A stretch of DNA of 63,996 bases, filler included, from Candidatus Woesearchaeota archaeon (GCA_023266675.1; 4 parts of 4 records of this genome joined end to end with filler, not necessarily neighbours in it); one strand, 5' to 3'; shown: positions 1-60,248, numbered from the whole stretch's first letter. Notes: generated from the sequence alone by a model not told the origin. Numbers and translations: made by a program.

Positions 1-2079
1 TCTTTGCATATCTGCAAGTTCGGATTCCTTTGCTTTGATTTCTTCGTCGACTTCCTTTTCAAGGAATGCGCCTGTGCTTGAGGAACGTTTTCTAAATCCT
101 CCCTGCATAGCGCCAGATACTTCTGTTAAGTCGCCGTCCATTGTTACCATCTTGCATGATCCTATTCCTATTTTTCTTGCGCGCTCAATGTCGTCAACAA
201 TTAACGCGCCGCCAAACACGTGTGAAAACACATTCTTGAATTTTGGGTCGTAAGTTGTGAGTTCCTGGGCAAGGCCTTTTACGCCAGTAGAATTCTTTAT
301 TGTATGTATATTTTCATGTATGGTTGCAGGTTTTATTTTGTTTAAAGGCAAAAATGATGCTGTTCCAAGCTGTTTTTCCTTTAAGTGTTTTATGCACATT
401 GCAGCAACTTTATCGTCTTCAACAACTATGGAGAATATTCTGTTTCCTGCTGCAACTTCAAGCGCTTGCGAGTATTCAGAATTAGCTTTTCCAAGTTCAG
501 ATACTGTTCCATAAACGCCATGAAATATGTCTTTTTGTGAGAGTATTGATTTGATTGCTTCGTTTCCCTGTATTCGTTCAAGAAGTGCGTCTGCCTTTGC
601 TCTTAGTCGTGATGACTCTTCTTCTGCGCGAAGAGCCTTTTGCCTTGCATTTTGAAGTTGTGCGGAAAATGAGGAGTCTTCATTTAATCGTGTATTTAGT
701 TCAACTGTTGATTTCTTGAATTCGATTCTCATCTGGGTGAGCTTTTCTATATCTTTCTTATTTTCATTCTTGACAATCATGACTTTTTCCATCTTTTCGT
801 CAATGCTTTTTTCTTTTAGTTCAAGTTTGTCTTTTTCTCGCAGAAGGTTCTGTTCTTCAATTCTTAGTTTTTGGATTTCTTCCTGGTTGATGTCTGCTTT
901 TTTGTCAAGTTCATCTATTTCTTTTTCTTTTTCTGCTGCACCTGCAATGTTATGTTTCTTTTTGAAATCCTCAATTCTCACTTCAATTGATTCCTGTTCT
1001 TTCTTATTTGCCTCTTTTCTCTTTTCAAGTTCGGTTTTTTGTTTTGAGAGCCTGTCAAGCTTTTCGTCGTGTTCTTTTTTTCCGTATTCAAGCTGCGTGA
1101 TTCGCTGGATTATTCTCTCAATTTCTGCTGTAAGACTTTGCACTCTAGTTTTGTTTTGCGCTTCCTCAACCTTGATGTTTTCAATGTCTTTTTGGATTCG
1201 TATCTGCTCTTTGTCGCCTTTCTCTTCAACTTCCCTGTTTATCTTGTTCTGTTCTTCTCGTCTTGAAGCTATATCCTGTTTTAGCTTGTTTATTTCTGCC
1301 TGTATGAGTGAGACTTCTTTTCGTGCAGCGTTTGACTGAACATCAAGCTGATTGATTTCCTTATTTCTTTTTTCTACGTTTACGCTTAGAAGTGTTGCCT
1401 TGTTTGACTTTATTTTGTCATCTAAGTCCTTGAATTTTGATGCCTGGTCCCTTTCTTTTTTAAGTTCTTTTAGATACCCGCCACGTTCAGTCATTATTAT
1501 CTCTGACTCTTTTAGCCGAAGGTTGACCTGTTCTATCTGTGCAAGAGCTTTTGTTCTTTTTTCCTCGTAAACTGAAATTCCGCCGACTTCCTCGATTATT
1601 CCCCGCCTTTCAATTGGACTCATCTCGACAAATCGTATGATATCCCCCTGGAGAATTATGTTGTATCCATCCGGATTTATTTTTGCAATTGACAAAAGGT
1701 CAAGTATCTGCTGGCGTGTTATTGTTTTGTCGTTTAACTTATATATTGACTGACCATTTGGCCTTACTATTCGTGATATTTTTACTTCATTTGTGTCTAC
1801 AGGAAAAACTTTTTTTAGATTATCAAACCAGATTGAAACTTCTCCTTCTTTAGATGGATTTTTTGATTTACCTCCATTATAGATTAAGTTTGATGTTTTT
1901 TCTGCACGAAGCCCCTTTGCGCCAGATTTTCCAAGAACAAAGCATATTGCATCCATGACATTTGATTTTCCAGAGCCGTTTGGACCAAGAACACAGTTGA
2001 ATGTATCTCCAAATACAAGCTCAGTTCGTTTGGCAAAAGATTTGAATCCGTGAAGGACCATCTTATTGATTTTTGTCAT
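1..2079 (-). CDS. smc: Chromosome segregation protein SMC (N-terminal part, runs off window start)
   Basis: Not in the ORF track; manual minus-strand translation from ATG 2079 gives MTKINKMVLHGFKSFAKRTEL...LGPNGSGKSNVMDAI (Walker A), then long coiled coil and hinge-like region; GGTGA upstream. Confidence 0.95.
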   Translation of the reverse strand, partial: MTKINKMVLHGFKSFAKRTELVFGDTFNCVLGPNGSGKSNVMDAICFVLGKSGAKGLRAEKTSNLIYNGGKSKNPSKEGEVSIWFDNLKKVFPVDTNEVKISRIVRPNGQSIYKLNDKTITRQQILDLLSIAKINPDGYNIILQGDIIRFVEMSPIERRGIIEEVGGISVYEEKRTKALAQIEQVNLRLKESEIIMTERGGYLKELKKERDQASKFKDLDDKIKSNKATLLSVNVEKRNKEINQLDVQSNAARKEVSLIQAEINKLKQDIASRREEQNKINREVEEKGDKEQIRIQKDIENIKVEEAQNKTRVQSLTAEIERIIQRITQLEYGKKEHDEKLDRLSKQKTELEKRKEANKKEQESIEVRIEDFKKKHNIAGAAEKEKEIDELDKKADINQEEIQKLRIEEQNLLREKDKLELKEKSIDEKMEKVMIVKNENKKDIEKLTQMRIEFKKSTVELNTRLNEDSSFSAQLQNARQKALRAEEESSRLRAKADALLERIQGNEAIKSILSQKDIFHGVYGTVSELGKANSEYSQALEVAAGNRIFSIVVEDDKVAAMCIKHLKEKQLGTASFLPLNKIKPATIHENIHTIKNSTGVKGLAQELTTYDPKFKNVFSHVFGGALIVDDIERARKIGIGSCKMVTMDGDLTEVSGAMQGGFRKRSSSTGAFLEKEVDEEIKAKESELADMQR

Positions 2080-2239
2080 CTATTACATTCACCTACTCCC
2101 ACAGACTATTTTGAAAAGCTAGAGATTTATAAGGTTTGCGGAAAAAGTGAGGATTAAACTTGTTAATTGCTAAAATTAGTGATTATATTATTAGTATCGA
2201 TTCTAGGTAAACTTTGTTTATTGTAAGTATTGTAAAAAA

Positions 2240-3106
2240 TTATTGGCATAAATTGCTCATTGCATTACATGTTAGACCATTGCAGCAACCACCGTTAGGC
2301 GAAGAAGCCAAACAATTCTGACCACTCTGGACGCATGAAGGTGCAGGAGTAGAACATAAATTAGTAGAAGTGTCACATGTTAGCCCTGAACAGCAACCAC
2401 CATTAGGAGAAGAAGCCAAACAATTCTGACCAGATTGAACACAAGAAGGTGCTGGTGTCGAACACAAATAAGAGGACATATCACAAACTAAACCAGAACA
2501 GCATCCACCATTAGGAGAACTAGCAACACAATTCTGACCACTAGAAACACATTGTGTTTGTGGTGTTGAACAAAGATAAGTCGAATTATCACAAGTCAAT
2601 CCAGAACAGCATCCACCATTAGGAGAAGAAGCCAAACAATTCTGACCAGATTGAACACAGGAAGGTGCTGGTGTCGAACACAAATAAGAGGACATGTCAC
2701 AAACTAAACCTGAACAACAACCACTATTAGGAGAACTAGCAACACAATTCTGACCAGACGGAACACATTGTGTTTGTGGTGTTTAACAAAGATAAGTCGA
2801 ATTATCACAAGTCAATCCAGAACAGCAACCACCATTAGGCGAAGAAGCCAAACAATTCTGACCAGATTGAACACAAGAAGGTGCTGGTGTTGAAATAGTA
2901 CAAATTCCGTTTGTACAAGTTTGAGTTATTGGACACGGATTTGCATCTGAACAGGCAGTACAAAGAAAAGCAGTACAGTTTCCATTATCACAGATAAACC
3001 CGTTTGAGCATTCTGCTGATGTCAGACATGTTGATGATTGACCGGAACAACCGTATAAGAATAAAGCCATAAACAAGAGCCCAATGAATAAATTGGTTCG
3101 TTTCAT
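2240..3106 (-). pseudogene. Secreted/lipid-anchored Cys-rich repeat protein interrupted by one in-frame TAA (2783-2785)
   Basis: ORFs 2783..3106 and 2240..2695 are in the same frame; TAA corresponds to TCA (Ser) in the sister repeat at 2567-2569; N-terminal signal MKRTNLFIGLLFMALFLYGC (lipobox-like). Confidence 0.75.
2246..2893 (-). repeat. Six tandem 108-bp (36-aa) Cys-rich coding repeats, order A-B-A-B-A-A
   Basis: Units STPAPSCVQSGQNCLASSPNGGCCSGLTCDNSTYLC (A) and STPQTQCVxSGQNCVASSPNxGCCSGLVCDMSSYLC (B) read directly. Confidence 0.95.
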
Positions 3107-3258
3107 GGAATAGATTTGATTAATAGCTATATAATATTACCTATTATCAATTAGGTTAGTGCATTGTTAAGGTTCATATGATGTTATAAGAAGAGATTAT
3201 TGATAATATGAAAACAAATAATATCAATTTAAATATGAAGAGTTGATAATAAAGTATT

Positions 3259-3750
3259 ATGGGTCTTCACAAAAATCAAGCATTGCATAAATTGTTTAGA
3301 TTTAGCATCGCGTTAAAAGCTATTAATGGTGTTATTGAGGTAATAATTGGAGCATTTCTTCTGTTTATAAGTTCACAGAAAGTTGTAAGCTTTGTGCAGA
3401 CTGCAGCAAGACAGGAGCTTATTGAAAATCCGCATGATTTTATAAGCGCTTATTTTTTTAACCTTTCACAGAATTTTTCACTTAGCACTCAGCATTTTGT
3501 TGCAATATATCTTCTTGTTAATGGCATTATAAAAATAGTACTGATAGCAGGATTATGGAGAGGAAAAACATGGGCGTACCCCACTGCAGGCATAGCATTG
3601 TCTTTGCTTGTAGGGTATTCAATTTTTAGGGTATTACTTCATTTTTCATTTATTTTGCTGATAATGATTATAGTAGATATGGTTATATTGATGCTTCTGC
3701 ATTTTGAATATGAAAGAACCACAAACAGCAAGTCTAAGAATCATAAATGA
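3259..3750 (+). CDS. Membrane protein, DUF2127-like
   Basis: Four TM segments; SIALKAINGVIE, ELIENPHDF, GLWRGKTWAYP patterns. Confidence 0.75.
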   Translation: MGLHKNQALHKLFRFSIALKAINGVIEVIIGAFLLFISSQKVVSFVQTAARQELIENPHDFISAYFFNLSQNFSLSTQHFVAIYLLVNGIIKIVLIAGLWRGKTWAYPTAGIALSLLVGYSIFRVLLHFSFILLIMIIVDMVILMLLHFEYERTTNSKSKNHK

Positions 3751-3798
3751 AGTTTTGATTAAATACTTTTTTAAATAAATAGTTACTTCCTAGTAGAG

Positions 3799-4728
3799 AT
3801 GAATAAGAGTTATGAAGAATTATTTAGGAGATTGAAAAATGAAAGAGAGAACAATATTAGGCAAAATAAGATTATTGAAGGAAGAGATTATACTGTAAAT
3901 GTTAGCGGTAATTTCAAAAAAAGCATTGCACACGTTGCGCCTATTGAGAAATTTGAATATGGTGTTTTTGACAATGTCAGGATTTATCTTCTACATTCAA
4001 AAATTAGTTTTCAGCCTGGAGATATTGTGACAGCAAAGATAGTATTTACTGAATATAAGCACGCATTTGGTGATGTTGTTGAAAATAAAGGATGTTTTTT
4101 GGATGAATACATAGATTCTGGAGAACGCTTTAATGTTAATCTTACAAGCAGAAGTCGAGTTAATGTTAGAGATGCTATAAGTGACCCGTATTATTTTAAT
4201 GGCGGACTTTTTGGTTCATTTGCAATTATTAGAAATGTAAAGTTTAAACCGGTTAAACGAACACTCGATGGAGTATCATACCATCAATCTAGGGTAAAAG
4301 TTGTTTCAAAAGGTCTAGATAAGAATCAAAGATATGTAGTAATAACAGAACCTCAGATTCAGCAGTTAGATGATCTTAAAAAAGAGATTTTTGTTGGTAT
4401 AATTGAGGAAAATCCAACATATAAACCAAGTCCGCGCCTTGTTTATCCAAATCTTGATGATATACAGCCAAATTATTTTGGGCTACAGAGAAATTTTGGG
4501 ATATATGCCTATTTTAATGGAGATACGAAAGCTATAATTAAAAGAAATGGTGTTATGGATATCAGCAATAGTTCAGTTATTGATGGAATTGAAAAACTCG
4601 TAAATATGTCTACAGATGATGATAATAAGATAGTCATTACAGGCAGAAGTACGTATGAAAAAGTCAATCAGGGAATTGTTGAACTTGGATACAGTCCTGA
4701 AGAATTATTGAGAGTAAAGAAAAGATAA
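3799..4728 (+). CDS. Hypothetical protein with TRAM-like beta-barrel region
   Basis: GRDYTVNV...PGDIVTAKIV...HAFGDVV resembles TRAM consensus; 309-aa ORF. Confidence 0.45.
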   Translation: MNKSYEELFRRLKNERENNIRQNKIIEGRDYTVNVSGNFKKSIAHVAPIEKFEYGVFDNVRIYLLHSKISFQPGDIVTAKIVFTEYKHAFGDVVENKGCFLDEYIDSGERFNVNLTSRSRVNVRDAISDPYYFNGGLFGSFAIIRNVKFKPVKRTLDGVSYHQSRVKVVSKGLDKNQRYVVITEPQIQQLDDLKKEIFVGIIEENPTYKPSPRLVYPNLDDIQPNYFGLQRNFGIYAYFNGDTKAIIKRNGVMDISNSSVIDGIEKLVNMSTDDDNKIVITGRSTYEKVNQGIVELGYSPEELLRVKKR

Positions 4729-4739
4729 TTTAAAAAGTA

Positions 4740-5036
4740 TTATTCAATATTTAGAGCCCGCATAATCTTGTCAAGCTTCTGGTTTATTTCGTCAAATTCA
4801 AATGACTCATCTTCTTCATCTCGTCTTGATGAAGGTTTTTCATTCTTTCGAAAGCATGCACTGCAGTAAACAGGTTTGTCACCTGTAGGTCTGAATGGTA
4901 CTTCGCATTCGTCGCCGCATTTGTCACAGATTACAGTATGCATTCTTTTTTCAAAGCTGCCGGAGCTTCTTTTAAAGCTTGGCCTGTCATTACGGTCTTC
5001 TCTTCCAAATTGCTTAGCGCCTGTCATTCTTCTCAT
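4740..5036 (-). CDS. CxxC-x17-CxxC domain protein
   Basis: CDKCGDECEVPFRPTGDKPVYCSACF motif. Confidence 0.9.
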   Translation of the reverse strand: MRRMTGAKQFGREDRNDRPSFKRSSGSFEKRMHTVICDKCGDECEVPFRPTGDKPVYCSACFRKNEKPSSRRDEEDESFEFDEINQKLDKIMRALNIE

Positions 5037-5153
5037 AAATTCAAGAAAATAATGAGGTTATATAAATCTATGCAAAATAAAATGAGAGTAACTAATAAAA
5101 AGGAAAGTTAACAATAAAAAATTATTTAAATAAGTTTTAAGATAATTACAAAT

Positions 5154-6350
5154 ATGCTTTTTGAATTTATTATTGCACTGCTTCTAGGGATACTGATTGG
5201 GACAATTTCAGGACTTACACCTGGCGTTCACATTAATCTTGTGAGTGTTATTCTTGTTTCAATGTCACCTGCGCTTTTATTGTATACATCCCCAATAGTT
5301 TTGGCTGTATTTATTATTTCTATGAGCATAACGCACACGTTTCTTGATGCTGTTCCGTCTATTTATCTTGGAGCGCCTGATGACGCGCAGGCAATGGGAG
5401 CGCTGCCAGGTCATCGACTACTTTTAAAAGGAAAGGGATATGCCGCAGTGTATCTAACTGTTTTTGGAAGCCTTGGCGGACTAATCCTTGCAATTCTTTT
5501 TATACCAATATTGTTTAAGGCTTTCCTTGTTCTTTATCCAATTATTAGAGAGTATATCGGTTATTTTCTATTATTGATTGTAATTGTCATGATTTTTAAA
5601 GATAAATTCACATTTTGGGCTTTGTTTTTATTTTTGCTTTCAGGCTCACTTGGATTAATAGTGTTTTCTATGCCAAACTTAAAAGAACCGCTGTTTCCAA
5701 TGCTCTCTGGCATATTTGGTGTTTCAACGCTTTTATTATCGCTTCTTGAAAAAGTCAAGATTCCAAAACAGGAAATAAAAAAGCCGAAAATTCAAAAAGA
5801 GCTTGCGCTAAAAGCTGTCAGCTCTTCAACTTTTGCAGGGACATTGATTTCATTTCTGCCTGGTCTAGGCCCTGCACAGGGCGCCGTCGTGGCTCAGGGG
5901 ATTACACGCAATCTTGGCGACGAAGGTTTCTTAATTCTTGTCGGTGGGATAAACACTGTTGGCATGATGATTTCACTTGTAACACTTTACGTTTTGGAAA
6001 AAGCAAGAAATGGAAGCGTGATTGCGATATCAAAACTTATGGAGATAAACTTAGCTCAGTTTTTTGTTTTGGTGTTTGCATCATTGATTGTCGGTGTTTT
6101 ATGCTTTTACCTGTCGCTTTTTATTGCAAAAAGGTTTTCTTCCTTAATTACAAAAGTTAATTATCAGGCGATAATTGTTATAATAATATTATTTGTTTCT
6201 TCGCTTACTTTGTTTTTATCAGGGTGGATTGGTCTATTTATTTTGATTATATCAACGTCAATTGGACTGATAGCGCCTCTTAAAGGAGTTCAGCGTAGCC
6301 ATGCAATGGGATGCTTGATACTGCCTGTTATACTTTATTTTTTGATTTGA
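5154..6350 (+). CDS. Tripartite tricarboxylate transporter TctA family (DUF112) membrane protein
   Basis: GLTPGVHIN, PSIYLGAPD, LPGHRLLLKGKG motifs; many TM helices. Confidence 0.85.
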   Translation: MLFEFIIALLLGILIGTISGLTPGVHINLVSVILVSMSPALLLYTSPIVLAVFIISMSITHTFLDAVPSIYLGAPDDAQAMGALPGHRLLLKGKGYAAVYLTVFGSLGGLILAILFIPILFKAFLVLYPIIREYIGYFLLLIVIVMIFKDKFTFWALFLFLLSGSLGLIVFSMPNLKEPLFPMLSGIFGVSTLLLSLLEKVKIPKQEIKKPKIQKELALKAVSSSTFAGTLISFLPGLGPAQGAVVAQGITRNLGDEGFLILVGGINTVGMMISLVTLYVLEKARNGSVIAISKLMEINLAQFFVLVFASLIVGVLCFYLSLFIAKRFSSLITKVNYQAIIVIIILFVSSLTLFLSGWIGLFILIISTSIGLIAPLKGVQRSHAMGCLILPVILYFLI

Positions 6351-6422
6351 TTCTTAGATGCCGTGCCAAAACAGGTTTATCAATCGAAACGTTTAAAAAC
6401 AGGCAATAATTTCTTAAGGTTT

Positions 6423-6680
6423 ATGAACGCAACAATAGTAAATTTTAGAATGGGAAGACACCACCAATACGATAACCAGATGATTGTAAAGCTTGATTCA
6501 ACAGAATCACGTGAAAAAGCAGAGAAAATGATTGGCAAAACAGTTGTATGGACGTCCCCTGCAGGAAAAGAAATCGCTGGCAAAGTACGTTCAGCACACG
6601 GCAATAAAGGCGCTCTACGAGTCTTGTTTGAGACAGGAATGCCAGGACAGGCAGTCGGCGCAAAAGTAAGCTTAAAATAA
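6423..6680 (+). CDS. rpl35ae: 50S ribosomal protein L35Ae
   Basis: IGKTVVWTSPAGK..GKVRSAHGNKGALRVLFETGMPGQA; ATG at 6423 preferred over upstream GTG. Confidence 0.93.
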   Translation: MNATIVNFRMGRHHQYDNQMIVKLDSTESREKAEKMIGKTVVWTSPAGKEIAGKVRSAHGNKGALRVLFETGMPGQAVGAKVSLK

Positions 6681-13881: not shown

Positions 13882-14406
13882 ATGTTAAAAAATTATAACA
13901 AATATAAAGTTTTGAAAGTTTTTCTTGATGCACCTACCGAGAGCCATAGACTCAGAGAGATAAGCAGGGCATCTGGAGTTTTTCCAAAATCTGTAATGAA
14001 TTACTTAAAAGAGTTTGAAACAGATGAGATAATTAAACGTTTTGAAAAAAATAAAATCCCATTGTATACTGCGTTAAGAGATAATGAGAGATTTAAGCTT
14101 TATAAGAAATTAAGTATAATTTATGAATTGAATGTTTCTGGATTTATTGAAGAACTATGGAATAAAGTCTCACCAGATGCTATAATATTATATGGAAGTT
14201 ATGCTAAAGGAGAATCTGTTGAAGATTCAGATATTGACATATTTGTTATAGGAAAAGAAAAGGAAATAAACATAGAGATTTATGAAAAGACGCTTGGTAA
14301 AAAGATTCATTTGATGTATGAAGCTTTTCCAAAAAATATTTCAAATGAGCTTAAGAATAATTTAGCTAATGGAATTGTGATGAAAGGATATTTTAAGGTG
14401 TTTTAA
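13882..14406 (+). CDS. wHTH-fused minimal nucleotidyltransferase (MNT)
   Basis: LREISRASG HTH; LYGSYAKGE...SDIDIFV pol-beta motif. Confidence 0.9.
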   Translation: MLKNYNKYKVLKVFLDAPTESHRLREISRASGVFPKSVMNYLKEFETDEIIKRFEKNKIPLYTALRDNERFKLYKKLSIIYELNVSGFIEELWNKVSPDAIILYGSYAKGESVEDSDIDIFVIGKEKEINIEIYEKTLGKKIHLMYEAFPKNISNELKNNLANGIVMKGYFKVF

Positions 14407-16468: not shown

Positions 16469-16568
16469 NNNNNNNNNNNNNNNNNNNNNNNNNNNNNNNN
16501 NNNNNNNNNNNNTTAATTAATTAANNNNNNNNNNNNNNNNNNNNNNNNNNNNNNNNNNNNNNNNNNNN
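16469..16568. other. Artificial contig linker
   Basis: N-run flanking TTAATTAATTAA (stops in all frames). Confidence 0.98.
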
Positions 16569-26631: not shown

Positions 26632-26749
26632 TAGGACGACCATAGTGGCGTGGTTCCACCGGTTCCCATATCGAACACCGAAGTTAAATGCGCTTACGTT
26701 ACACTGGTGTACTGTACTTTTGTACGGGAAACTTGTAAAGTCGTCTTAC
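26632..26749 (+). rRNA. rrf: 5S rRNA
   Basis: Terminal stem AGGACGAC/GTCGTCTT; GACCATAG, CCCATATCGAACACCGAAGTTAA, GTACT..GGGAA; followed by a T-rich tract. Confidence 0.92.
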
Positions 26750-32990: not shown

Positions 32991-33090
32991 NNNNNNNNNN
33001 NNNNNNNNNNNNNNNNNNNNNNNNNNNNNNNNNNTTAATTAATTAANNNNNNNNNNNNNNNNNNNNNNNNNNNNNNNNNNNNNNNNNNNN
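32991..33090. other. Artificial contig linker
   Basis: N-run with TTAATTAATTAA. Confidence 0.98.
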
Positions 33091-34319
33091 TATGCGCACC
33101 ATACAACGCAGACTTTGACGGAGACGAAATGAACCTCCACATCCCGCAGACTGAGGAAGGAAGAGCTGAAGCAGAAACATTAATGGCAGTACACACGCAA
33201 TTGATTTCGCCAAGATACGGACTTTCAATAATCGGCTGTAACATGGACGCAATAAGCGGAAACTACATGCTAACAAAATACCTTGACAACGTTTTACGTG
33301 AAGAAGCAATCCAAATGCTGATAAGCATCGGCGTACAGGATATAAAAAGGCTTCCAAACAAGGAAAGAGTTTCAGGCAAAGATATCTTCTCACTAGTGCT
33401 TCCAGATGATTTCAACTTTAACGGAAAAGCAAGAGACGGCTCAGCTGTTATAATTGAAAATGGAAAGCTAAAAGAAGGAGTCATGGACAAGGCAAACCTT
33501 GGCGAAGGACACGGACTCATGCTACGAAACATTCACAAAAAGTACGGCTCAGAAAAAGCAATGGATGTTCTTGGAAAAATATTCAGACTAGGAATAAAAG
33601 CTTTACAGACAACCGGTCTAACAGCTGCAATATCAGACACTGATTTAACTGAAGATGGAAAAAACAGAGTCAACAAAATACTAACAGACGCGCAAATTGA
33701 AGTTAGTAAGCTAGTTGAAGGATTCTACAAAAACGAGCTTGAAGCATTCCCTGGACGAACAATTGAAGAGACACTCGAACTAAAAATACTTGAAGCTTTG
33801 AACAAAGCAAGAAACGACGCAGGAAAAGTAACTCAGGAAACAGTTAACAGACTTGGACACACAGCAATTTTGATTGATTCAGGTGCAAAAGGGACAGTAA
33901 TCTCAATGGCTCAGATGGCCTCAGTAGTAGGACAGCAGGCTTTACGTGGAAAACGAATGGACCAAGGATATGACGAGAGAACACTGTCATGTTTTGAACG
34001 AAAAGACCTCTCTCCAAAAGCAAAAGGATTTGTTGAAAACTCATTCAAGAAGGGCCTTAAACCATACGAATTCTTCTTCATGAGTATGACAGGACGAGAC
34101 TCACTGATGGATACTGCGCTACGTACTCCAAAATCCGGATACTTATACAGAAGGCTTGCAAACGCAATGCAGGATATAAGAGTTGAATACGACAGCACAG
34201 TACGTGACGCAACAGGAAGAATCGTGCAGTTCAAATACGGCGGAGACGGCATTGATGTATCAAAATCAGAAGGCGGCTCAATCAACATCAAAAAAATCAT
34301 TGAGACAATCAACGAATAG
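33091..34319 (+). CDS. rpoA1: DNA-directed RNA polymerase subunit A' (Rpo1N), 5'-truncated
   Basis: Catalytic [12 protein letters not shown] at contig start; [16 protein letters not shown]. Confidence 0.97.
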
Positions 34320-37402: not shown

Positions 37403-38440
37403 TTATCCTAAACATAATTGAACTTCTTGTTTTTTTACTAAATTTGTATGGCATGTTTCTTCCCTTATTGATTTTAGGTCTTGCATTATTTTTATTGCCA
37501 AAGCTTCTGCCATCTTAACAGGAACAGCATTACCAATCATTTTATATCCGTCTGCAATCTGGTCATAATAAAATATAAAATTATCTGGAAATGTTTGTAT
37601 TCTTGCACATTCCCTAACTGATAACCTTCTGTATAAATGCTCTTTTCCTTTAACAAATTCTCGCTTATCTGGCTCGAGGAAGTTCATTTTTGGAGCTTTT
37701 GGATGACACGGTGCATGCCTTCCCCCTGCCTGTATTGTAAAAGATGGTTCATCCCACCCCCTAACCCTATTCCTTGACATGTATATGGTTGAAAATCCGC
37801 CATTCATATATTCATGGTTTTGAATTTTAAGCTTGCCATTAGTCTTGTTATTATGACTTGCAGCAATTGGCTCCGGTAAATCCTTAATTGCATCTTTTAA
37901 TGTTGGCTTAAATTTTTGTGGTTCTGGAAACTCAAATTTCTTTCCCATATTATTATGGTATCCGACAATTATAATCCTCTTCCTTTCTTGAGGCACACCA
38001 TAATCTTTGGCATCTAAAAGTTTAAATGTTACATTATACCCTATCTTTTTAAAAGAATTGATAATATTCATAAATTCAGGTAAATGTTTTGGTGAAAGAA
38101 TACCTGAAACATTTTCTGCAAGAAAAAACATTGGCTGCTTTTGCTTAATTAACCTTACATAATCATAAAAAACTTTTCCTCTTGGATCATTTATTCCTTT
38201 CATAGCACCTGCAAGACTCCAACTCTGACAAGGTGGTCCTCCAACAAATCCCACAACATCGGGGATATCGTGTGGCTCTAGTTTGGTAATTGATTTTTTA
38301 TTAACTGTTATACCATGATTTTTTTCAAATGTTTCCCAGCATCCATTCCAATTATCATTAGCAAATGCTACATCAAACCCTGCATCAGCAAAACCTAAAT
38401 CCAAGCCTCCAGCTCCTGAAAAAAATGATGCTATTTTCAT
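37403..38440 (-). CDS. C5-cytosine DNA methyltransferase (HaeIII/NgoPII-like)
   Basis: FSGAGG, GPPCQ, ENV, QERKR, YMSRNR TRD, GNAV. Confidence 0.95.
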   Translation of the reverse strand: MKIASFFSGAGGLDLGFADAGFDVAFANDNWNGCWETFEKNHGITVNKKSITKLEPHDIPDVVGFVGGPPCQSWSLAGAMKGINDPRGKVFYDYVRLIKQKQPMFFLAENVSGILSPKHLPEFMNIINSFKKIGYNVTFKLLDAKDYGVPQERKRIIIVGYHNNMGKKFEFPEPQKFKPTLKDAIKDLPEPIAASHNNKTNGKLKIQNHEYMNGGFSTIYMSRNRVRGWDEPSFTIQAGGRHAPCHPKAPKMNFLEPDKREFVKGKEHLYRRLSVRECARIQTFPDNFIFYYDQIADGYKMIGNAVPVKMAEALAIKIMQDLKSIREETCHTNLVKKQEVQLCLG

Positions 38441-39294
38441 TTTATCACAAAAGTTATTAACTTTGCCTCCAGAAGTTTAGCAGGATTATTAGGGTCTTTT
38501 ATTTTTACATCCTTAACAGAAGTAAATTTATTTGATTCTATCTCTTTTATGTCCTCTTTCGGATAAGAGAGATATTTCTCTTTTGTTAATATTGCAAAAA
38601 GATGAAATTTATTATTTTCAAGCTTGCATGAATCTTTAAAAACTTTAAGAGGGTTTTCAATGGTCCACATCCCTCTAATCCTTAATTTAGTTATTCCGAG
38701 TGGATCAACTCGCTTAACTTTGCCTAACTCTTTAGTGTCTCCCTTTTCTAAGCCGAGTGAATCAAGTGCAGAATCAATCTCTTTTTTTATTGGTTGATAA
38801 ACCTTTTCATAAACTGAATGGTCTGCTGCATAACATGTGCCATGAACAAAAAAGATATAATTTACAACTCCCTTTTTTGCATTTCCTATTACATAAAATA
38901 ATTCTTTTTCTATCCAATTCCCATTATCACATTTTTTACAGTCAGCTGTTATTCTAATATCCTTAGCAAGTAACTTATCTTTTGGTGATGAACTATTTAA
39001 TGATAAGTCACTTTTCAAGCTTTCAATTTTTTTAATTTCAAAAGCATCACTATTTTTTATAATAATGTCTGGCGGATGGTTCTGGTTTCCAAGCCATGAA
39101 AAAACTTTTAAGTATTCCTCTTCTTTTTTATTTTGTGGAAGTCTAAATGATGATGCAATAGCATCTTTTATGTAAAACTCTAATTGTTCTCCAGTCGCAT
39201 TAATCCTAATTAAATAAGTAGAAGCATAGCTTTTCAGATCATTATTTTTATATGAAGCGATATTCAATATTGCCCTTAAAATGTTATTACCCAT
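38437..39294 (-). CDS. Type II restriction endonuclease, NgoPII-like
   Basis: GNQNHPPD..EIKK (PD-D/ExK), LNSS, VDPLGITKLRIRGMW; ATGA overlap with MTase. Confidence 0.85.
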   Translation of the reverse strand: MGNNILRAILNIASYKNNDLKSYASTYLIRINATGEQLEFYIKDAIASSFRLPQNKKEEEYLKVFSWLGNQNHPPDIIIKNSDAFEIKKIESLKSDLSLNSSSPKDKLLAKDIRITADCKKCDNGNWIEKELFYVIGNAKKGVVNYIFFVHGTCYAADHSVYEKVYQPIKKEIDSALDSLGLEKGDTKELGKVKRVDPLGITKLRIRGMWTIENPLKVFKDSCKLENNKFHLFAILTKEKYLSYPKEDIKEIESNKFTSVKDVKIKDPNNPAKLLEAKLITFVIK

Positions 39295-39452
39295 ATCTCC
39301 CACGTTACATAGTATATATTATAGATGTTTATAATGTTTCTCTTTTTAAACTTCGCGGTCACATATGTCCAATTGTCCAGTGCTAAAGATTAATAATTTT
39401 TCTCCTCCAACTCGCAACAACCTTTATAAATTTCTATTCAATTCCTTCACTC

Positions 39453-40771: not shown

Positions 40772-41899
40772 ATGGGAAAAGTTGCTAAATTAATTGTTTT
40801 TATACCAAAAGAAACGTTGGAAAATGAAACCAGGGTTTCAGCAACACCAGATACTATCAAAGCATTAATCCAGTGTGGTGTAGATGTTGTCGTTGAAAAA
40901 GGAGCAGGAAACAGCTCATCAATTTCTGACGATGATTTTAAAAAAAGCGGCGCAGAAATAAATGAGAAATTCTTCCATGACGCAGACATCATAATCTCTG
41001 TAAACCCTTTGACAAACCCACAAATAAACACAATTAAAGAAAGCTGCGTATGTGTCTCATTTTTGGATATTTTTTCGACACACGAGATAATAAGCGCGGC
41101 AGCTGAGAAGAGGATAACTTATTTCTCAATGAACCTTATTCCACGGATTTCGCGCGCGCAAAAAATGGACGCTCTCTCTTCACAGACAAACATTGCAGGA
41201 TATAAGGCAGTAATAATGGCTGCAAATGAATTGCCAAAAATATTCCCGTTGATGATGACAGCAGCTGGAACTTTGCACCCTGCAAAAGTTGTCGTGCTTG
41301 GCGTTGGAGTCGCCGGACTTCAGGCAATAGCCACAGCAAAAAGGCTTGGCGCAGTTGTTGAAGCGTCAGACGTGCGGCCATCAGTAAAAGAGCAGGTTTT
41401 AAGCCTTGGCGCAAAGTTCATTGAAGTTCCTTTTGACAAGGATTCAGAAAGCAAGGATGGATACGCAAATGGAGCGTCAGAAAAATTTTTGAAAAAACAG
41501 GCTGAGGAAGTAAGTAAAAGGATAGCTGCTGCAGATATTGTGATATGTACCGCTCTTGTTCCTGGCAAAAAAGCGCCAGTATTAATCAGTAAAGAAATGG
41601 TAAAGTCAATGAAAAGCGGCTCAGTCATCGTTGACATGGCAGCAGTTCAGGGCGGTAACTGTGAACTAACCGAAACTGATAAAATTTCAACTCATCACGG
41701 CGTGAAGATAATTGGCGTGACAAATATTGCAGCAACAGTGCCTGTGCATTCTACGCAGATGTACTCAAAGAATATTTTAGAGTTTTTACAATGCATAATT
41801 AGCGCAGGAAAATTAAATATTGATTTGAAGGACGAGATAATATCAGCGGCAATTGTCACACACGATGGAAAAATAAAAAATGAGAAGGCGCTAAAATGA
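40772..41899 (+). CDS. pntA: NAD(P) transhydrogenase alpha subunit, domain I (PntAA)
   Basis: IPKE..ETRVSATP, PRISRAQKMDALSSQ, GVGVAGLQA, GGNCE. Confidence 0.95.
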   Translation: MGKVAKLIVFIPKETLENETRVSATPDTIKALIQCGVDVVVEKGAGNSSSISDDDFKKSGAEINEKFFHDADIIISVNPLTNPQINTIKESCVCVSFLDIFSTHEIISAAAEKRITYFSMNLIPRISRAQKMDALSSQTNIAGYKAVIMAANELPKIFPLMMTAAGTLHPAKVVVLGVGVAGLQAIATAKRLGAVVEASDVRPSVKEQVLSLGAKFIEVPFDKDSESKDGYANGASEKFLKKQAEEVSKRIAAADIVICTALVPGKKAPVLISKEMVKSMKSGSVIVDMAAVQGGNCELTETDKISTHHGVKIIGVTNIAATVPVHSTQMYSKNILEFLQCIISAGKLNIDLKDEIISAAIVTHDGKIKNEKALK

Positions 41900-42198
41900 T
41901 TGAATCAACATCAGCGGATATCATAACAAACATCATGATATTTGCGCTCGCATCGCTTTTAGGGTTAGAGCTAATCAAACACGTCTCAAGACTTCTTCAC
42001 ACGCCGTTAATGTCGCTAACTAACGCCATCTCATCAGTAGCAATAGTCGCTGCACTAATTGTGATGTCTTACGCTAACACAACTCTAACAATAACGCTAG
42101 CAGCTGTAGCAATCGCTTGCGCGGCAACTAACGCAATTGGTGGATTCATGATAACTGAAAGAATACTAAAGATGTTTAGAAAGGACGGCAAAAAATGA
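41896..42198 (+). CDS. pntAB: NAD(P) transhydrogenase alpha subunit, membrane part (PntAB)
   Basis: LHTPLMSLTNAISS, NAIGGFMITERILKMF. Confidence 0.95.
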   Translation: MIESTSADIITNIMIFALASLLGLELIKHVSRLLHTPLMSLTNAISSVAIVAALIVMSYANTTLTITLAAVAIACAATNAIGGFMITERILKMFRKDGKK

Positions 42199-43580
42199 TA
42201 GCTGAATCACTAATCCAGATTATTTATATTATCTCTGCAATACTTTTTACGCTCTCAATAAAATGGATGAGCGAGGTAAAAACTTCAAGAAGAGGAAACT
42301 TCTCTGCAGCAATAGGCATGATTCTTGCAGTCATCGCAACAATTCTTGCTGTTGGCACAAATCATTATGAGTTGACAATTGTCGCAGTTGTGATTGGTGG
42401 AATATTTGGCGCTGCTATGGCAATGAAGATGCCAATGACTGCAATACCTCAGCGAACAGCGATATCACACGCATTTGGAGCGCTTGCAGCAGCACTCGTT
42501 GGCGCAGCAGAGTTCTTTTACAACACTCCAAGCATCGACACGTTCACAATGAGCATACTTTCAATTGAAGTCATACTGGGATTCTTAACTTTCACAGGAA
42601 GCATCGTGGCTTTCTTAAAACTTCAGGAATTAATTTCAGGACGACCAATAATTTATCCTGCGCGAAAAACCATAAGCTTCCTTGTTTTTGGAGGAGCATT
42701 ATTAAGCGCAATATTATTAATAATAAATCCCGGAAACCAAACATTGTTTTTGATAATGGGAGCGCTTTCATTGGTATTTGGAGTGATTCTTGTGATAGCA
42801 ATTGGCGGCGCAGACATGCCAACAGTGATTGCAATACTAAACTCATTTGCAGGACTCTCAGCAGCAGGCCTTGGATTTGTATTAAACAACAAACTCTTGA
42901 TTGTTGCCGGCGCAATTGATGGTTCTTCAGGACTCATACTTGCAATACTCATGTGCAAAGCAATGAACCGCTCGTTTACAAATGTGCTATTTGGCGGATT
43001 TGGAAATATACAAAAATCAAAGGCAGGAAAAAACGCCGTTGAAAGAAATATAAAATCAATGGTAGCTGAAGAAGCAGCGCCTCTCTTGTCTTATGCTAAA
43101 TCAGTTATAATAATTCCTGGGTACGGCATGGCAGTAGCGCAGGCTCAGCACGCGTCAAAGGATTTAATGGACTCACTTGAAGAAAAAGGCGTCAAGGTAA
43201 ACTTTGCAATACATCCCGTTGCTGGACGAATGCCAGGACATATGAACGTGCTTTTGGCAGAAGCTGATGTTCCTTATGAAAAGCTTAAAGAAATGGATGA
43301 AATAAACAGCGACTTTAAGCACACTGACGTTGTAATAGTTGTTGGTGCAAATGATATTGTCAATCCGGCTGCAACGCACAACAGAGCTAGCCCGATATAC
43401 GGCATGCCGATACTCAAAGCGTATGAAGCAAAAATGATTATAATGATAAAAAGAAGCCCCGGTGGACTTGGATTCTCAGGCATTGACAACGAGCTTTTCT
43501 GGCATAAAAATACCACAATGGTTTATGGCGACGCAAAAGAAGTCATAAACAAGTTAGTGCAGAATATTAAGGAAAATTAG
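42195..43580 (+). CDS. pntB: NAD(P) transhydrogenase beta subunit
   Basis: IGGADMP, PGYGMAVAQAQ, HPVAGRMPGHMNVLLAEA. Confidence 0.97.
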   Translation: MIAESLIQIIYIISAILFTLSIKWMSEVKTSRRGNFSAAIGMILAVIATILAVGTNHYELTIVAVVIGGIFGAAMAMKMPMTAIPQRTAISHAFGALAAALVGAAEFFYNTPSIDTFTMSILSIEVILGFLTFTGSIVAFLKLQELISGRPIIYPARKTISFLVFGGALLSAILLIINPGNQTLFLIMGALSLVFGVILVIAIGGADMPTVIAILNSFAGLSAAGLGFVLNNKLLIVAGAIDGSSGLILAILMCKAMNRSFTNVLFGGFGNIQKSKAGKNAVERNIKSMVAEEAAPLLSYAKSVIIIPGYGMAVAQAQHASKDLMDSLEEKGVKVNFAIHPVAGRMPGHMNVLLAEADVPYEKLKEMDEINSDFKHTDVVIVVGANDIVNPAATHNRASPIYGMPILKAYEAKMIIMIKRSPGGLGFSGIDNELFWHKNTTMVYGDAKEVINKLVQNIKEN

Positions 43581-45481: not shown

Positions 45482-47605
45482 TTATTTTTTATCCTCAAGC
45501 GTTGCATTTTTTACAATCAGTTTTGCAGTGTTTTCATTTTCTTCAATGATTTCACTCTCGTTTATAATCAATTTTTTAGAAAAAATCGGGCAGTCAATAA
45601 CCAGACTCTCAAATTCTCCACCCTCTCCAGCCACATTAAGTTTGTATTTTTTATTGAGCAAAACCAATTTTTCAATTTCTTTTTCAGTGATAATTTTTCC
45701 AAGCCATGATTTATCAAGTCCGTACGCTGCAACTGATGAGAGGATAAATTCAAACTTTTCTTTGAGCAGCTCTCGCATCTCAGTTTCCTGGTCTTTGTGC
45801 CAAAGTGGCGAAAAGACAGGAAGCGCAAGTTCATCGCAAATCTTTTCAATTCTTTCACGCTGATAATTTGAAAACAATGCACCTGTGACAACCCCTTCAA
45901 TATGATATTTTTCCTTGGCTTTTTGAATTGCTTTTTTTAAATCAAGAAGTTCTGTTTCTTTCTTTCCGCTAGTTTTCTGCTCAACAAGTGGATAACCCAT
46001 AGATTTTGCCTGCAAGGATGCCAAGTCAATGTTTGGCGTGTGAAACATAAAAGAATCCTTGTTCTCGCTTTTGATTGTTATTAAACATGATATCTCATAA
46101 TTCCTTTTTTTCATGATGTACGTTGCATATGTTGAATCTTTTCCTGATGAGAAAAGAACACCGAGTTTTTTGTTTGGACGATTTAAAAACGTGTTAAGAT
46201 AATCGGATTTGAAATTGAAATTTTTTCGGCGCGAAAGCTTGTCAATTGCCTTGTCAAATCCTGAGCCGTACTGCGCTGCTTTTTTTGGACGCCACGCAAA
46301 ATGTTTTGGAATATCAAATATCTCTTCTGCAACCTCACGAAGTATTGCTTTTTTCTCGTGAGTAATTTTGTATTTTCCTGGAATCTTTAGCGAGTATGCT
46401 GCCAGTTCCAAATCGAGGTATGGAAGGCGAAGCTCAATGTTGTTTGCCATTGTTATGACGTCGTCCCTGTAAAGGTCACGCTCATGAAGCTGCAGTAGGC
46501 CATGAAGGCACTCCTTGTTTAATTCATGGCTTTTCTCGTGCCGCTTATATCCTGCAAACAGTTCCTCGCTTCCAAGACCTGAGAATATTACTTTTACTCC
46601 ATCCTCTTTTGCACGCTCGCACGCTATAAAAAAAGGGAGTGATACGCCTGCCTTTACAACGTTTGAATCCTCAATTAATGGAATTATTTTTTTTAAGTAT
46701 GAATCAACTTCGTCAAGCGAGACAGTTTTTACCTTTAGCTTAAACCCGATTTCCCGCGAGGCTTTTCTTGCCCAGATAAGGTCGTCAGATTTTTTCACTC
46801 CTTTTTCCTTAAGCGCCGCCGTGTAGCATGTAAAATTGACGCCAAGAGATTTCAGTGTCTTTGCAATTACAACTGAGTCTATTCCTCCTGAAAACAGCAC
46901 CCCAACTTTTCTGTCAGGTACTCTTTTGGCAACAGAGTTTATGATTAATCCTGAAAGCTCTTTTTTAATCTCCTCTTTCTCTTTTTTTGTTTCAGGAGTT
47001 ATTTCAAAAAAGTCTCTTCGTGATTCAATTATTTTTCCTGTCTTTAGATTGTATTCAAGAACAGTCCTTGGATTCAGTTCTTCAATATTTATGAACCCCT
47101 GTTTTAGAAGCGCCTTTTTCTCTGACGCAAACGCAAATGAGTCTTTGGTTTTAACAGTCCACAATGGTTTTTCGCCAATTAAGTCTCGTGCTAAGATTAC
47201 TTTTTCCTTTGTTTGGTATGCGAGTGCATAAGGTCCGTCAAATTCTTTAATTGCAGCTATACTGAGTTTATCAAAGAGTTTTAAAACAAGTTCTGCATCG
47301 TTTTTTGCTTTAATATTGTGTTTTTTGCAAAGTTCTTCCCAATTGTATATCTCGCAGTTTATCACAAGAACACCGTTTTGTTTTAACGGCTGCTTTATGT
47401 TTTTTACAATAGCGTGAAGGCAGTGTCCTAACACATTTTTTGAACTGTTTCCTTTTGGAAGTTTTGACAATTCAACATCACTGATAACCTGTTTTCCATC
47501 ATAAAATCCGTATCCGTCGCGTCCTCTTTCCTGCATTGTTTTTAAACCGTCAAGGACTATACTATAAGCATTGAGGTGGTTAAAGACACCTATTATTCCG
47601 CACAT
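45482..47605 (-). CDS. Fusion: asparagine synthetase B-like (Ntn amidotransferase + ATP pyrophosphatase) and diphthine-ammonia ligase Dph6
   Basis: MCGIIG N-terminal Cys, ARD..GEKPL, FSGGIDS, SGLGSEELFAGY; C-terminal FSSGKDS, SFMFH, PLW, GEGGEFES. Confidence 0.9.
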   Translation of the reverse strand: MCGIIGVFNHLNAYSIVLDGLKTMQERGRDGYGFYDGKQVISDVELSKLPKGNSSKNVLGHCLHAIVKNIKQPLKQNGVLVINCEIYNWEELCKKHNIKAKNDAELVLKLFDKLSIAAIKEFDGPYALAYQTKEKVILARDLIGEKPLWTVKTKDSFAFASEKKALLKQGFINIEELNPRTVLEYNLKTGKIIESRRDFFEITPETKKEKEEIKKELSGLIINSVAKRVPDRKVGVLFSGGIDSVVIAKTLKSLGVNFTCYTAALKEKGVKKSDDLIWARKASREIGFKLKVKTVSLDEVDSYLKKIIPLIEDSNVVKAGVSLPFFIACERAKEDGVKVIFSGLGSEELFAGYKRHEKSHELNKECLHGLLQLHERDLYRDDVITMANNIELRLPYLDLELAAYSLKIPGKYKITHEKKAILREVAEEIFDIPKHFAWRPKKAAQYGSGFDKAIDKLSRRKNFNFKSDYLNTFLNRPNKKLGVLFSSGKDSTYATYIMKKRNYEISCLITIKSENKDSFMFHTPNIDLASLQAKSMGYPLVEQKTSGKKETELLDLKKAIQKAKEKYHIEGVVTGALFSNYQRERIEKICDELALPVFSPLWHKDQETEMRELLKEKFEFILSSVAAYGLDKSWLGKIITEKEIEKLVLLNKKYKLNVAGEGGEFESLVIDCPIFSKKLIINESEIIEENENTAKLIVKNATLEDKK

Positions 47606-49438: not shown

Positions 49439-49538
49439 NNNNNNNNNNNNNNNNNNNNNNNNNNNNNNNNNNNNNNNNNNNNTTAATTAATTAANNNNNN
49501 NNNNNNNNNNNNNNNNNNNNNNNNNNNNNNNNNNNNNN
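49439..49538. other. Artificial contig linker
   Basis: N-run with TTAATTAATTAA. Confidence 0.98.
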
Positions 49539-58942: not shown

Positions 58943-59854
58943 ATGAGATTTAAACCAACAACTGACAATATAATAAATGATTATGGGATGAGTAATTTGG
59001 TGTTGATACCTAAAAATTCTGCGCTTCAGGGAGGAATATCATCAATACTAAATCTAAAGAATGATGCCATAAAAATTGAGTCTTTCAGGGGAGAGGACAT
59101 ACCCTCAATTCTTGAAGACTTGTACTTTAAGAAAAAAGTGAAAGCTGTAGGAATCACAGGTGATGATTTGTATGATGAATACAGAATCAAAAATCCAAAT
59201 TCACTAGTTGAATTACTGGAAACAATAGATTGGAATGATGCGAGTGCAATGTTTAGGCGTCCGGCTCTTTGCGTTATTGGAAGAATCGGTGAAGAAATAA
59301 CTCAGACGCCAAGCGTTGCAGTAAACAGAAAATATCTGGAGACATCAAAGACCGGTCTTGAAGAATTAGGAATTCTGCCAAAAATAAGTATATATAATGG
59401 CAACACTGAAGCGACTGTTGCAAGCGGAATAAATGACTTATGCGTTGACATAGTCTATTCAGGAAAAACATTAAATGAGTATGGGCTTGAAATAAAAGAA
59501 ATAATCCGATTCAGTGATTTTTCCGTGATAGGTGTTAATGAAAAAAGTCCGCTTGGGTTAAAACGTGATTACGACATGATTTTTGACAGGGTTAAAAGTC
59601 CAGTTGAAGGCTCTTACACATCAAAACTTTCGCTTGACCCAAACAAAGCAATGAAGAAACTAGGTGAAGAGTTCTCTGAGTTTGCAAGAGCATGCACACT
59701 TTACGGACTAACTGGGGATGTTGCCAAAGAAAGAAAAGATGTGGCGCTAGAGTTTCAGCAGCTTTTTTACACAATGTCAATAAATGCAGCAAGATGTGAT
59801 TTGGATTTTAGTGATATATCCCAATCCTTCTATTCTTCATTAAAGAGGGATTGA
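58943..59854 (+). CDS. HisG-like ATP phosphoribosyltransferase fused to HisE-like PR-ATP pyrophosphatase
   Basis: RGEDIP, GITGDD, GNTEA, DIVYSGKTL (HisG); GSYTSKL...KKLGEE..E (HisE). Confidence 0.8.
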   Translation: MRFKPTTDNIINDYGMSNLVLIPKNSALQGGISSILNLKNDAIKIESFRGEDIPSILEDLYFKKKVKAVGITGDDLYDEYRIKNPNSLVELLETIDWNDASAMFRRPALCVIGRIGEEITQTPSVAVNRKYLETSKTGLEELGILPKISIYNGNTEATVASGINDLCVDIVYSGKTLNEYGLEIKEIIRFSDFSVIGVNEKSPLGLKRDYDMIFDRVKSPVEGSYTSKLSLDPNKAMKKLGEEFSEFARACTLYGLTGDVAKERKDVALEFQQLFYTMSINAARCDLDFSDISQSFYSSLKRD

Positions 59855-59855
59855 A

Positions 59856-60248
59856 ATGAAAGAGCTTGAAAACACGCTTGAGTTTAGGCTAAGGTATGAC
59901 AAAGACGGACTTGTTCCAGTAGTGACTCAAGATTCAAAAACAAAAGAAGTCTTGATTCTCTCATTTGCAAACAAAGAAGCTGTAATGAATACTTTGGAAA
60001 CAGGGATTGCAACATATTTTAGCAGAAGCAGAAAGGAACTATGGGTTAAAGGCGCAACTTCAGGAGATTATCTGAAAATAGACAGCGTTAGAATCAACTG
60101 TGAACAAAACTCTCTGCTGTATTCTGTAACACCACAAGGCAAAGGAGCATGCCACACAAAAGATGAAGATGGAGTTACAAGAAGCAGCTGTTATTATCGG
60201 GAAATCGTAGGAGATGCAGTGAAAGGATATAAATTAAAAATTATTTAA
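59856..60248 (+). CDS. hisI: Phosphoribosyl-AMP cyclohydrolase
   Basis: GLVPVVTQD, YFSRSR..LWVKGATSG, ACHT..SCYYR. Confidence 0.9.
   Translation: MKELENTLEFRLRYDKDGLVPVVTQDSKTKEVLILSFANKEAVMNTLETGIATYFSRSRKELWVKGATSGDYLKIDSVRINCEQNSLLYSVTPQGKGACHTKDEDGVTRSSCYYREIVGDAVKGYKLKII

Follow-up and report, generated by a model that had tools for sequence, protein, structure and literature searches.

Knottins, the class of small disulfide-rich peptides to which the inhibitor-cystine-knot (ICK) toxins of venoms belong, are described in the accessible text of the KNOTTIN database paper as "still absent from archaea", and as having bacterial members without experimental structures (PMC5753296). The accessible part of the PredSTP paper reports zero predictions among archaeal PDB chains (PMC4491269). 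Tandem toxins of the DkTx/Hi1a type are, in the available text of PMC6262176, two-domain, soluble venom components whose action on one channel is bivalent. The SCREP and ScrepYard papers report tandem disulfide-rich repeats that include many unrecognised prokaryotic ones, and the portions available to us do not describe the prokaryotic module family reported here (PMC6262176, PMC9885460). We found no report of archaeal knottins or of myxobacterial knottin arrays in the literature covered by our search, which excluded most subscription journals. Here we analyse minus-strand positions 2240-3106 of a 63,996-nucleotide stretch of DNA (the whole of which we call the window) from a Candidatus Woesearchaeota archaeon genome, where we read a 288-codon frame that includes one internal TAA. 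We hold it moderately probable that this is a Woesearchaeota-like gene for an anchored, disulfide-locked array of knottin-type modules with a binding or spacer role, truncated in this assembly; export, anchoring, knotting and role are what we infer from sequence comparison and structure prediction.

The frame encodes a signal-type N-terminus, two small modules with nine Cys residues in total (27/33/39/44/49 and 52/58/64/69) and, at residues 72-287, six 36-residue units, each consisting of a 6-residue Ser/Thr/Pro linker and a 30-residue module with the spacing C-x6-C-x8-CC-x4-C-x6-C (Table 1). A sequence-only reading of this DNA had described a lipobox-like LYGC signal, two small Cys modules and six 36-residue repeats with this spacing. 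All three descriptions stand: Cys20 ends the signal-type N-terminus, with the -3, -1 and +1 positions fitting a lipobox; the small modules are present at residues 27-69; and the spacing is exact in all six units. That reading had the architecture of 2240-3106 right and the continuity of the frame wrong: it overlooked a TAA at codon 108. The linker is STPAPS in units 1, 3, 5 and 6 and of the TPQTQ type in units 2 and 4. All 36 unit Cys residues are in register, 22 of the 36 columns are invariant across the six units, and the units are 64-100% identical among themselves. TRF detects repeats with a period of 108 nt (5.7 copies) and, above these, a super-repeat of 216 nt (2.3 copies, 94% matches); the unit order is A-B-A-B-A-A'. 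In a six-frame scan the module spacing occurs nowhere else in the window, except for one chance match antisense to a transhydrogenase gene. Ser, Cys, Gly, Thr, Asn, Pro and Gln predominate in the mature part, with Cys at 45 of 267 residues; this part has three N-x-S/T sequons, eight acidic residues (seven Asp and one Glu) and no Lys, Arg or His.

Pfam searches, profile comparison with PDB sequences, and structure prediction each relate the units to knottins. All six units place six Cys residues in a C-C-CC-C-C framework within ~30 residues. The five-unit piece (units 2-6) matches Toxin_7 (PF05980) in five stretches with E=1.8e-9 and 38.1 bits against a cut-off of 27, matches Toxin_12 (PF07740) with 22.2 bits against a cut-off of 21, and matches Toxin_35 below cut-off. 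A profile of 17 prokaryotic modules (A2) matches 57 distinct PDB sequences at E<=10, which by name are small disulfide-rich peptides of spiders, a remipede, an assassin bug, sponges, plants and a horseshoe crab; the lowest E-values belong to the remipede double-ICK toxin Xt3a (2.4e-5), Aca toxin 1 (1.1e-4) and cyriotoxin-1a (1.1e-3), and the alignments have in common the motif C-x2-G-x2-C...CC-x-G-L-x-C. A phmmer search of PDB with the 180-residue piece alone returned only tendamistat (E=0.39) and a mutase (E=2.1), which we take as noise.

AlphaFold2 (AF2) predicts the 180-residue piece, units 2-6, with a mean pLDDT of 75.3 without an alignment, and predicts one unit with a pLDDT of 81.2 with alignment A2 (78-81 for the five models). 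Foldseek comparison of the five-unit model with PDB places it closest to cyriotoxin-1a (6gft; TMt 0.84, root-mean-square deviation 0.9 A over 33 columns, probability 0.97), followed by other spider ICK toxins (2mqf, TMt 0.79; 1nix, TMt 0.74); across the spider ICKs, TMt is 0.69-0.84 and superposition is within 0.9-1.9 A over ~33 residues. A knottin is defined by disulfides I-IV, II-V and III-VI, the last of which passes through the ring closed by the other two; in the window units this pairing is putative, and the superposition is the sole indirect evidence for it. The single-unit model has eight matches at E<=10, all small disulfide-rich peptides, seven of which we take to be knottins; the best are Hs1a (TMq 0.75) and conotoxin MoVIB (0.69). 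EGF-like proteins score poorly against the five-unit model (Pfs25 and uromodulin, probability 0.01-0.09, TMt 0.09-0.17), with no Pfam EGF match, and hevein-type and Dickkopf-type matches to the same model have low TM scores or low probability. Because the Pfam, PDB-profile and AF2/Foldseek lines agree, the knottin-like character of the unit, by sequence and predicted fold, is well supported computationally. The knottin-like character that the sequence-only reading saw in the repeat is thus supported by all three lines, each within limits, and the structure prediction and Foldseek comparison of a single repeat that it had proposed retrieve mostly peptides that we take to be knottins, not EGF-like folds.

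According to a quite different hypothesis, the frame encodes an intracellular metal-binding Cys-rich protein (metallothionein- or zinc-ribbon-like), or is a non-coding repeat that happens to be open. The 45 Cys residues would suit a metal-binding protein, for which the signal-type N-terminus, the fixed ICK-like spacing with an adjacent CC pair, the absence of CxxC and of His ligands, and the confident, knottin-like AF2 models are all ill-fitting; a chance open frame is opposed by ratios of nonsynonymous to synonymous substitution (dN/dS) well below 1. We regard this hypothesis as extremely unlikely in either form. Pairwise Nei-Gojobori dN/dS between units is <1 in 15 of 15 pairs, and is 0.07-0.12 in the most diverged pairs (1-5, 3-5, 1-6, 3-6 and 5-6); all four changes between units 1 and 3 are synonymous. 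We conclude that 2240-3106 is a real coding sequence, not a low-complexity accident.

The TAA at codon 108, at a position occupied by Ser in the five other linkers, divides the frame into a 107-residue open reading frame (ORF; 2783-3106) that comprises the signal, the small modules and unit 1, and a 180-codon open frame (2243-2782) that comprises units 2-6. The 180-codon piece is without a signal peptide and has a sole in-frame ATG, at 2695 (ORF 2240..2695, 151 residues). Recoding of the stop codon was considered and rejected: TAA is the commonest stop in the window, ending 40 of the 67 ORFs counted (TGA 20, TAG 7), and recoding is therefore not indicated. The 180 codons 3' of the TAA retain all 30 Cys residues and have no second stop or frameshift. 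Comparison of double-units 1-2 and 3-4 shows 12 differing codons: nine synonymous, two nonsynonymous and one nonsense. The open downstream codons thus show a footprint of purifying selection.

A downstream frame free of lesions and differences that are mostly synonymous imply that the interruption is very recent, or is an error or a minority variant; it could be a very recent inactivation, a strain or minority variant, or a base error. Apart from the stop itself, the surrounding 66 nt are the same as at the unit 3/4 junction, and the nearest copy-specific differences are 44 nt upstream and 23 nt downstream, so that short reads could in principle have placed it correctly. If the TAA is real, the gene would be a recent pseudogene: the six-unit protein would no longer be made, and the product would be at most a 107-residue lipoprotein with one knot. 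Such a pseudogene would be in keeping with the placement of the stop, with the use of TAA at most ORF ends and with the absence of a start codon with a signal peptide 3' of the TAA, and gene loss is common in reduced genomes. Weighed against this are the 180 intact downstream codons with 30 of 30 Cys and the mostly synonymous differences between double-units, which are compatible both with a stop that arose very recently and with an error or minority variant within a 216-nt repeat that is 94% identical. We therefore regard a recent pseudogene as a possibility of lesser probability, and we retain the anchored knottin-type array, interrupted as assembled, as the preferred reading.

To place the units among known proteins we used searches with the 180-residue piece and with profiles. 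No homologue of the piece of similar length (99-315 residues, 3077 candidates) was found at E<=1e-3. A profile of the six window units against 1.84 billion representatives gave three matches at E<=1e-3, of which only P0001 is plausible; P0002 and P0003 look spurious. P0001 (258 residues) has a signal peptide, four tandem knottin modules with CCEGL motifs and Pro-rich linkers, matches Toxin_35 at E=1.8e-9 and looks eukaryotic. A genome scan (tblastn) found four related loci, with E of 1e-5 to 2e-4 relative to candidate stretches only. Three are from Myxococcota (Myxococcaceae, Archangium and Anaeromyxobacter terrae), and have ORFs with 3-11 tandem modules of the form C-x6-C-x5/7-CC-x3/4-C-x4-10-C. 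The fourth, L002, is from an archaeal metagenome-assembled genome (MAG); its contig has a GC content of 0.338 and genes for Spt5, L11, L1 and L10/P0. In the L002 protein (934 residues), a PKD domain accompanies a single module that follows immediately on the signal peptide, and the neighbouring protein, of 1151 residues, is Cys-rich with an F5/8 type C domain; a blastp comparison found no genes shared by L002 and the window. Within L002, 6457-12709 holds two giant Cys-rich exported proteins head to tail, after five ORFs without Pfam matches (1713-6469), and may be a surface-appendage operon.

A two-unit profile (A3) with which 8000 candidates were scored has at least 303 proteins at E<=1e-3. 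Those named with an organism are all from Myxococcota, and are all hypothetical proteins except for one MYXO-CTERM domain-containing protein. Most of the best 120 of the 303 have 7-21 modules by pattern count; 104 of these 120 start with Met, and of those, 41 have a canonical lipobox and 77 a looser pattern. The relatives are 200-2000 residues long, with up to 29 modules and with PKD, PD40 or F5/8-C domains within them or adjacent. A few proteins look archaeal, judging by their N-termini or composition: P0004, the best A3 match (E=3.3e-34), with 17 modules and an N-terminus judged by eye to be pilin-like; P0054, with a Class_IIIsignal match below cut-off (E=0.013); and P0043 and P0096, with amino-acid composition of low-GC type. 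NCBIfam has no model for the window knot units or for the relatives. In the ESM Atlas the best score, 0.81, is to a Myxococcota cluster in which 13% of members have Conotoxin_I2, a lead only. Many Myxococcota relatives share a C-terminal motif, C-x-C-x-V/L-I/L-x, after the last knot (L001 3063-5582, L003 7102-9012, P0010, P0036, P0047, P0083 and P0110); it may be a sorting signal, one A3 match being annotated MYXO-CTERM.

Loop lengths define how the window units stand relative to this family. Across 1205 modules from 124 proteins, loop 1 has 6 residues in 1166 and loop 2 has 5 residues in 1026; loop 2 has 8 residues in only eight modules, and the 6-8-0-4-6 spacing of the window units is found in none. 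The window units have the 6-residue loop 1, the CC followed by x-G-L/x-x-C, the tandem arrangement and the predicted export that mark the family, and depart from it in a loop 2 of 8 rather than the typical 5 residues. The module closest to a window unit, by identity (59%) and by best alignment score, is the archaeal L002 module. The link is distant, since the profile built from the window units alone retrieved no member of the family with library-wide significance. The results suggest that the window units are divergent members of a large prokaryotic module family without a name, and that they have been homogenised among themselves. The repeat is thus not unique, the family comprising at least 303 unannotated proteins, mostly lipoprotein-like and from Myxococcota.

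According to the hypothesis that the array is displayed at the cell surface, the archaeal gene would give rise to an exported, probably membrane-anchored protein with a signal peptide and a lipobox-like Cys, in which two four-Cys modules precede six knottin-type mini-domains connected by short Ser/Thr/Pro linkers. Once exported, each module would lock into a rigid, protease-resistant knot, and the array would form a beads-on-a-string stalk that displays several identical, uncharged polar surfaces. These surfaces could provide multivalent binding to another cell surface or to a polymer, with no cutting into free toxins. As assembled here, the TAA after unit 1 would truncate the product to 107 residues.

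The sequence-only reading had also offered a polyprotein toxin precursor. On this view the array would be cut at its linkers to release six free knottins, which would act on membranes or channels of a host or competitor. The Pfam spider-toxin matches and the PDB profile and fold matches to venom peptides speak for it, as does the existence of tandem ICK toxins such as DkTx and Hi1a (accessible text of PMC6262176) and Xt3a (the PDB match above). Several features point the other way: the linkers, STPAPS and STPQTQ, have no basic or other recognisable processing site; the only charged residues of the mature part are the eight acidic ones; the N-terminus resembles a membrane anchor; the relatives are large surface architectures rather than peptide precursors; and no protease or export gene lies nearby. 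The absence of Lys, Arg and His, the absence of processing sites, and the nature of the relatives lead us to favour a displayed array, and to consider a toxin precursor very unlikely.

A displayed array might instead bind carbohydrate or inhibit proteases, in the manner of tachystatin and SHL-I, or of squash and SOTI-type inhibitors. Weak profile and fold matches to tachystatin A, Selenocosmia lectin-I and spinach trypsin inhibitor III suggest such functions, and linkers of carbohydrate-binding modules are likewise rich in Ser, Thr and Pro. These matches are, however, weaker than those to channel toxins (profile E of 0.056-0.26; SOTI-III Foldseek probability 0.04), each unit has at most one aromatic residue, and loop 1 (VQSGQN) lacks a Lys or Arg for a trypsin-type P1 site. 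We therefore judge a carbohydrate-binding or inhibitor array distinctly unlikely, and prefer an anchored binding or spacer array.

Several observations weigh against an anchored knottin-type array and are collected here. With regard to anchoring, the available text of PMC12462473 gives the lipobox as L/V/I at -3, A/S/T/V/I at -2, G/A/S at -1 and C at +1, after the h-region of the signal peptide; the same paper, in favour of an anchor, predicts lipoproteins to be prevalent in DPANN archaea. On the other side, the Tyr at -2 of L-Y-G-C falls outside the permitted residues; lipidation of Cys20 would leave 45 Cys residues, an odd number; and the 68 other window ORFs checked include none with a lipobox-type N-terminus. 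We take the protein, on its sequence, to be probably exported and membrane-anchored. With regard to the fold, three of the six units were scanned singly, and these score below the Pfam cut-offs (Toxin_7, 17.2-19.6 bits against 27; Toxin_12, 12.6-13.8 bits), and the five-unit piece passes because scores sum over repeats; three of the five AF2 models of the 180-residue piece are poor (pLDDT 46-48); and no Foldseek match of either model reaches E<=0.001, all E-values being >=0.28, which is attributable to the shortness of the domain (~30 residues). AF2 may merely reproduce ICK folds that it has learned from the Cys pattern. With regard to the gene, because of the interruption this organism may not produce the full six-unit protein, and the neighbouring genes (SMC and a DUF2127 membrane protein) give no hint of function. 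Two things weaken the finding: the gene is interrupted, and the evidence is predictive throughout.

The contig is archaeal, judged by its genes: the window encodes ribosomal L35Ae, SMC, split RNA polymerase A'/A'', NusA-KH, S12, S7, diphthamide synthesis proteins, RFC and a presenilin-type SPP. RpoA'' has a 100%-identical entry in the protein collection and unnamed relatives at 82-84% identity; its nearest named relatives are labelled Candidatus Woesearchaeota archaeon (70% and 64-65% identity), and others are named Nanoarchaeota or Nanoarchaeia. A DPANN, Woesearchaeota-like origin is thus supported, in agreement with the DPANN source that the sequence-only reading had thought probable. The gene has a GC content at third codon positions of 0.21, and eight host genes span 0.20-0.34; we therefore take the gene to be native. 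Contamination or recent transfer from high-GC bacteria was rejected on the same ground. Table 1 gives the features of the locus. The TTATATA element is a possible archaeal promoter, which would give a leaderless or near-leaderless mRNA, and the six-T run after the terminal TAA is a possible archaeal oligo-T terminator.

Table 1. Features of the array gene and its flanks, in window coordinates, listed 5' to 3' along the gene.
Feature	Positions	Strand	Remarks
TATA-like element TTATATA	3128..3134	minus	22-28 nt 5' of ATG; putative promoter role
Signal-type N-terminus, residues 1-20	3047..3106	minus	MKRT and a 14-residue hydrophobic stretch, ending L-Y-G-C (Cys20)
Two small Cys modules, residues 27-69	2900..3028	minus	each C-x5-C-x5-C-x4-C; one extra Cys49
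Unit 1 (type A)	2786..2893	minus	STPAPS linker and module; closes the 107-residue ORF
In-frame TAA, codon 108	2783..2785	minus	first linker position of unit 2
Unit 2 (type B)	2678..2782	minus	3' of internal TAA
Unit 3 (type A)	2570..2677	minus	relative to unit 1: protein 100%, DNA 96% identical
Unit 4 (type B)	2462..2569	minus	
Unit 5 (type A)	2354..2461	minus	
Unit 6 (type A')	2246..2353	minus	most diverged; DNA identity to other units 58-76%
C-terminal Gln, terminal TAA (2240-2242) and six-T run	2234..2245	minus	T run directly after TAA

Elsewhere in the window, three pairs of 44-N runs ~16.5 kb apart (16469-16568, 32991-33090 and 49439-49538) have the appearance of gaps or masking rather than of a biological feature; the pair at 33 kb interrupts the RNA polymerase A' gene in its 5' part, and the ORF of this gene, 33129-34319, begins at Rpb1 domain 3. 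The segment 7484-16410 has ~11 ORFs (122-500 residues) whose sole Pfam match is a nucleotidyltransferase domain at 13882-14406; hydrophobic stretches at the N-terminus occur in several of them, and the segment may be an orphan block of surface or mobile genes. Immediately following the S12-S7 ribosomal genes, 37403-39303 encodes a complete type II restriction-modification pair, in which a C-5 cytosine methylase (E=4.9e-95) is joined by an NgoPII-family endonuclease (E=1e-81). A three-gene pntAB-type NAD(P) transhydrogenase (AlaDh_PNT, PNTB_4TM and PNTB, E=4.5e-172) lies at 40772-43580 in this DPANN-type genome, and a 707-residue ORF at 45482-47605 fuses an asparagine-synthase-type amidotransferase to a Diphthami_syn_2 domain. 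Beside a class I tRNA synthetase, 58943-60248 encodes a HisG/PRA-PH fusion and PRA-CH, of early histidine biosynthesis; should the remaining steps be absent, these genes would be unexpected in a symbiont with a reduced genome. A single 5S rRNA gene lies at 26632-26749 (71.4 bits), and no tRNA genes were found in the 64-kb window.

Confirmation of the fold would place the knottin scaffold in all three domains of life. It would also open a large pool of natural, uncharged, tandem prokaryotic knottins for evolutionary study and scaffold engineering and, for DPANN biology, would supply a candidate surface structure for cell-cell contact. A bolder proposal, which we rate as unlikely, is that the units are true cystine knots, the first documented in Archaea, that they and the hundreds of unannotated Myxococcota and archaeal proteins with the same CC-x-G-L-x-C module reveal a common ancestry of the arthropod and mollusc venom ICK scaffold and an old prokaryotic surface module, and that DPANN archaea use tandem knots as protease-proof attachment to hosts.

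Comparison with known systems shows what the window protein has in common with each and where it differs. The small modules have the C-x5-C-x5-C-x4-C spacing of Pfam DUF7107 (PF23416; E=6.9e-5, 23.5 bits, cut-off 24.6) and of NCBIfam TIGR04201, Myxo_Cys_RPT (E=7.5e-4, 19.5 bits, cut-off 25), but both scores are below threshold, so that membership is not established. Spider-venom ICK toxins of the Toxin_7 and Toxin_12 families (cyriotoxin-1a, 6gft; Hs1a, 2mt7) have the same six-Cys C-C-CC-C-C framework as the window units, and have the C-x2-G-x2-C...CC-x-G-L-x-C motif in common with the prokaryotic modules. They are, however, single secreted animal peptides that act on ion channels, whereas the archaeal window protein carries six copies behind an anchor-type N-terminus and lacks Lys, Arg and His in its mature part; venom ICK toxins are mostly basic or amphipathic. 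The resemblance may reflect common ancestry or convergence. The tandem ICK toxins, or SCREPs (DkTx, Hi1a and Xt3a), share with the window protein the presence of several ICK domains per chain on short linkers; Xt3a, the best PDB sequence match, aligns in two stretches, and DkTx and Xt3a are among the top fold matches. The window protein differs from them in having six domains and in being, probably, cell-bound.

The Myxococcota proteins, exemplified by a 306-residue ORF of Anaeromyxobacter terrae (L004:9902-10822) and an Archangium ORF (L003:7102-9012), resemble the window protein in the 6-residue loop 1, the CC-S-G-L/x-C motif, the tandem modules, the often lipoprotein-type N-termini and the same weak Pfam toxin-family matches. 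They differ from it in a loop 2 of mostly 5 residues, in modules that are diverse within a protein and in a GC content of 0.70-0.74. The archaeal protein L002:9905-12709 (934 residues; MAG: archaeon isolate Dive96_bin10.467) has the nearest module, located after a signal peptide and encoded on a low-GC archaeal contig as in the window, but its module is single, has a 5-residue loop 2 and sits at the tip of a large PKD protein rich in Cys. Taken together, these comparisons indicate that the fold of the window units is probably a variant of one already known, and that the units belong to a large prokaryotic family as yet undescribed.

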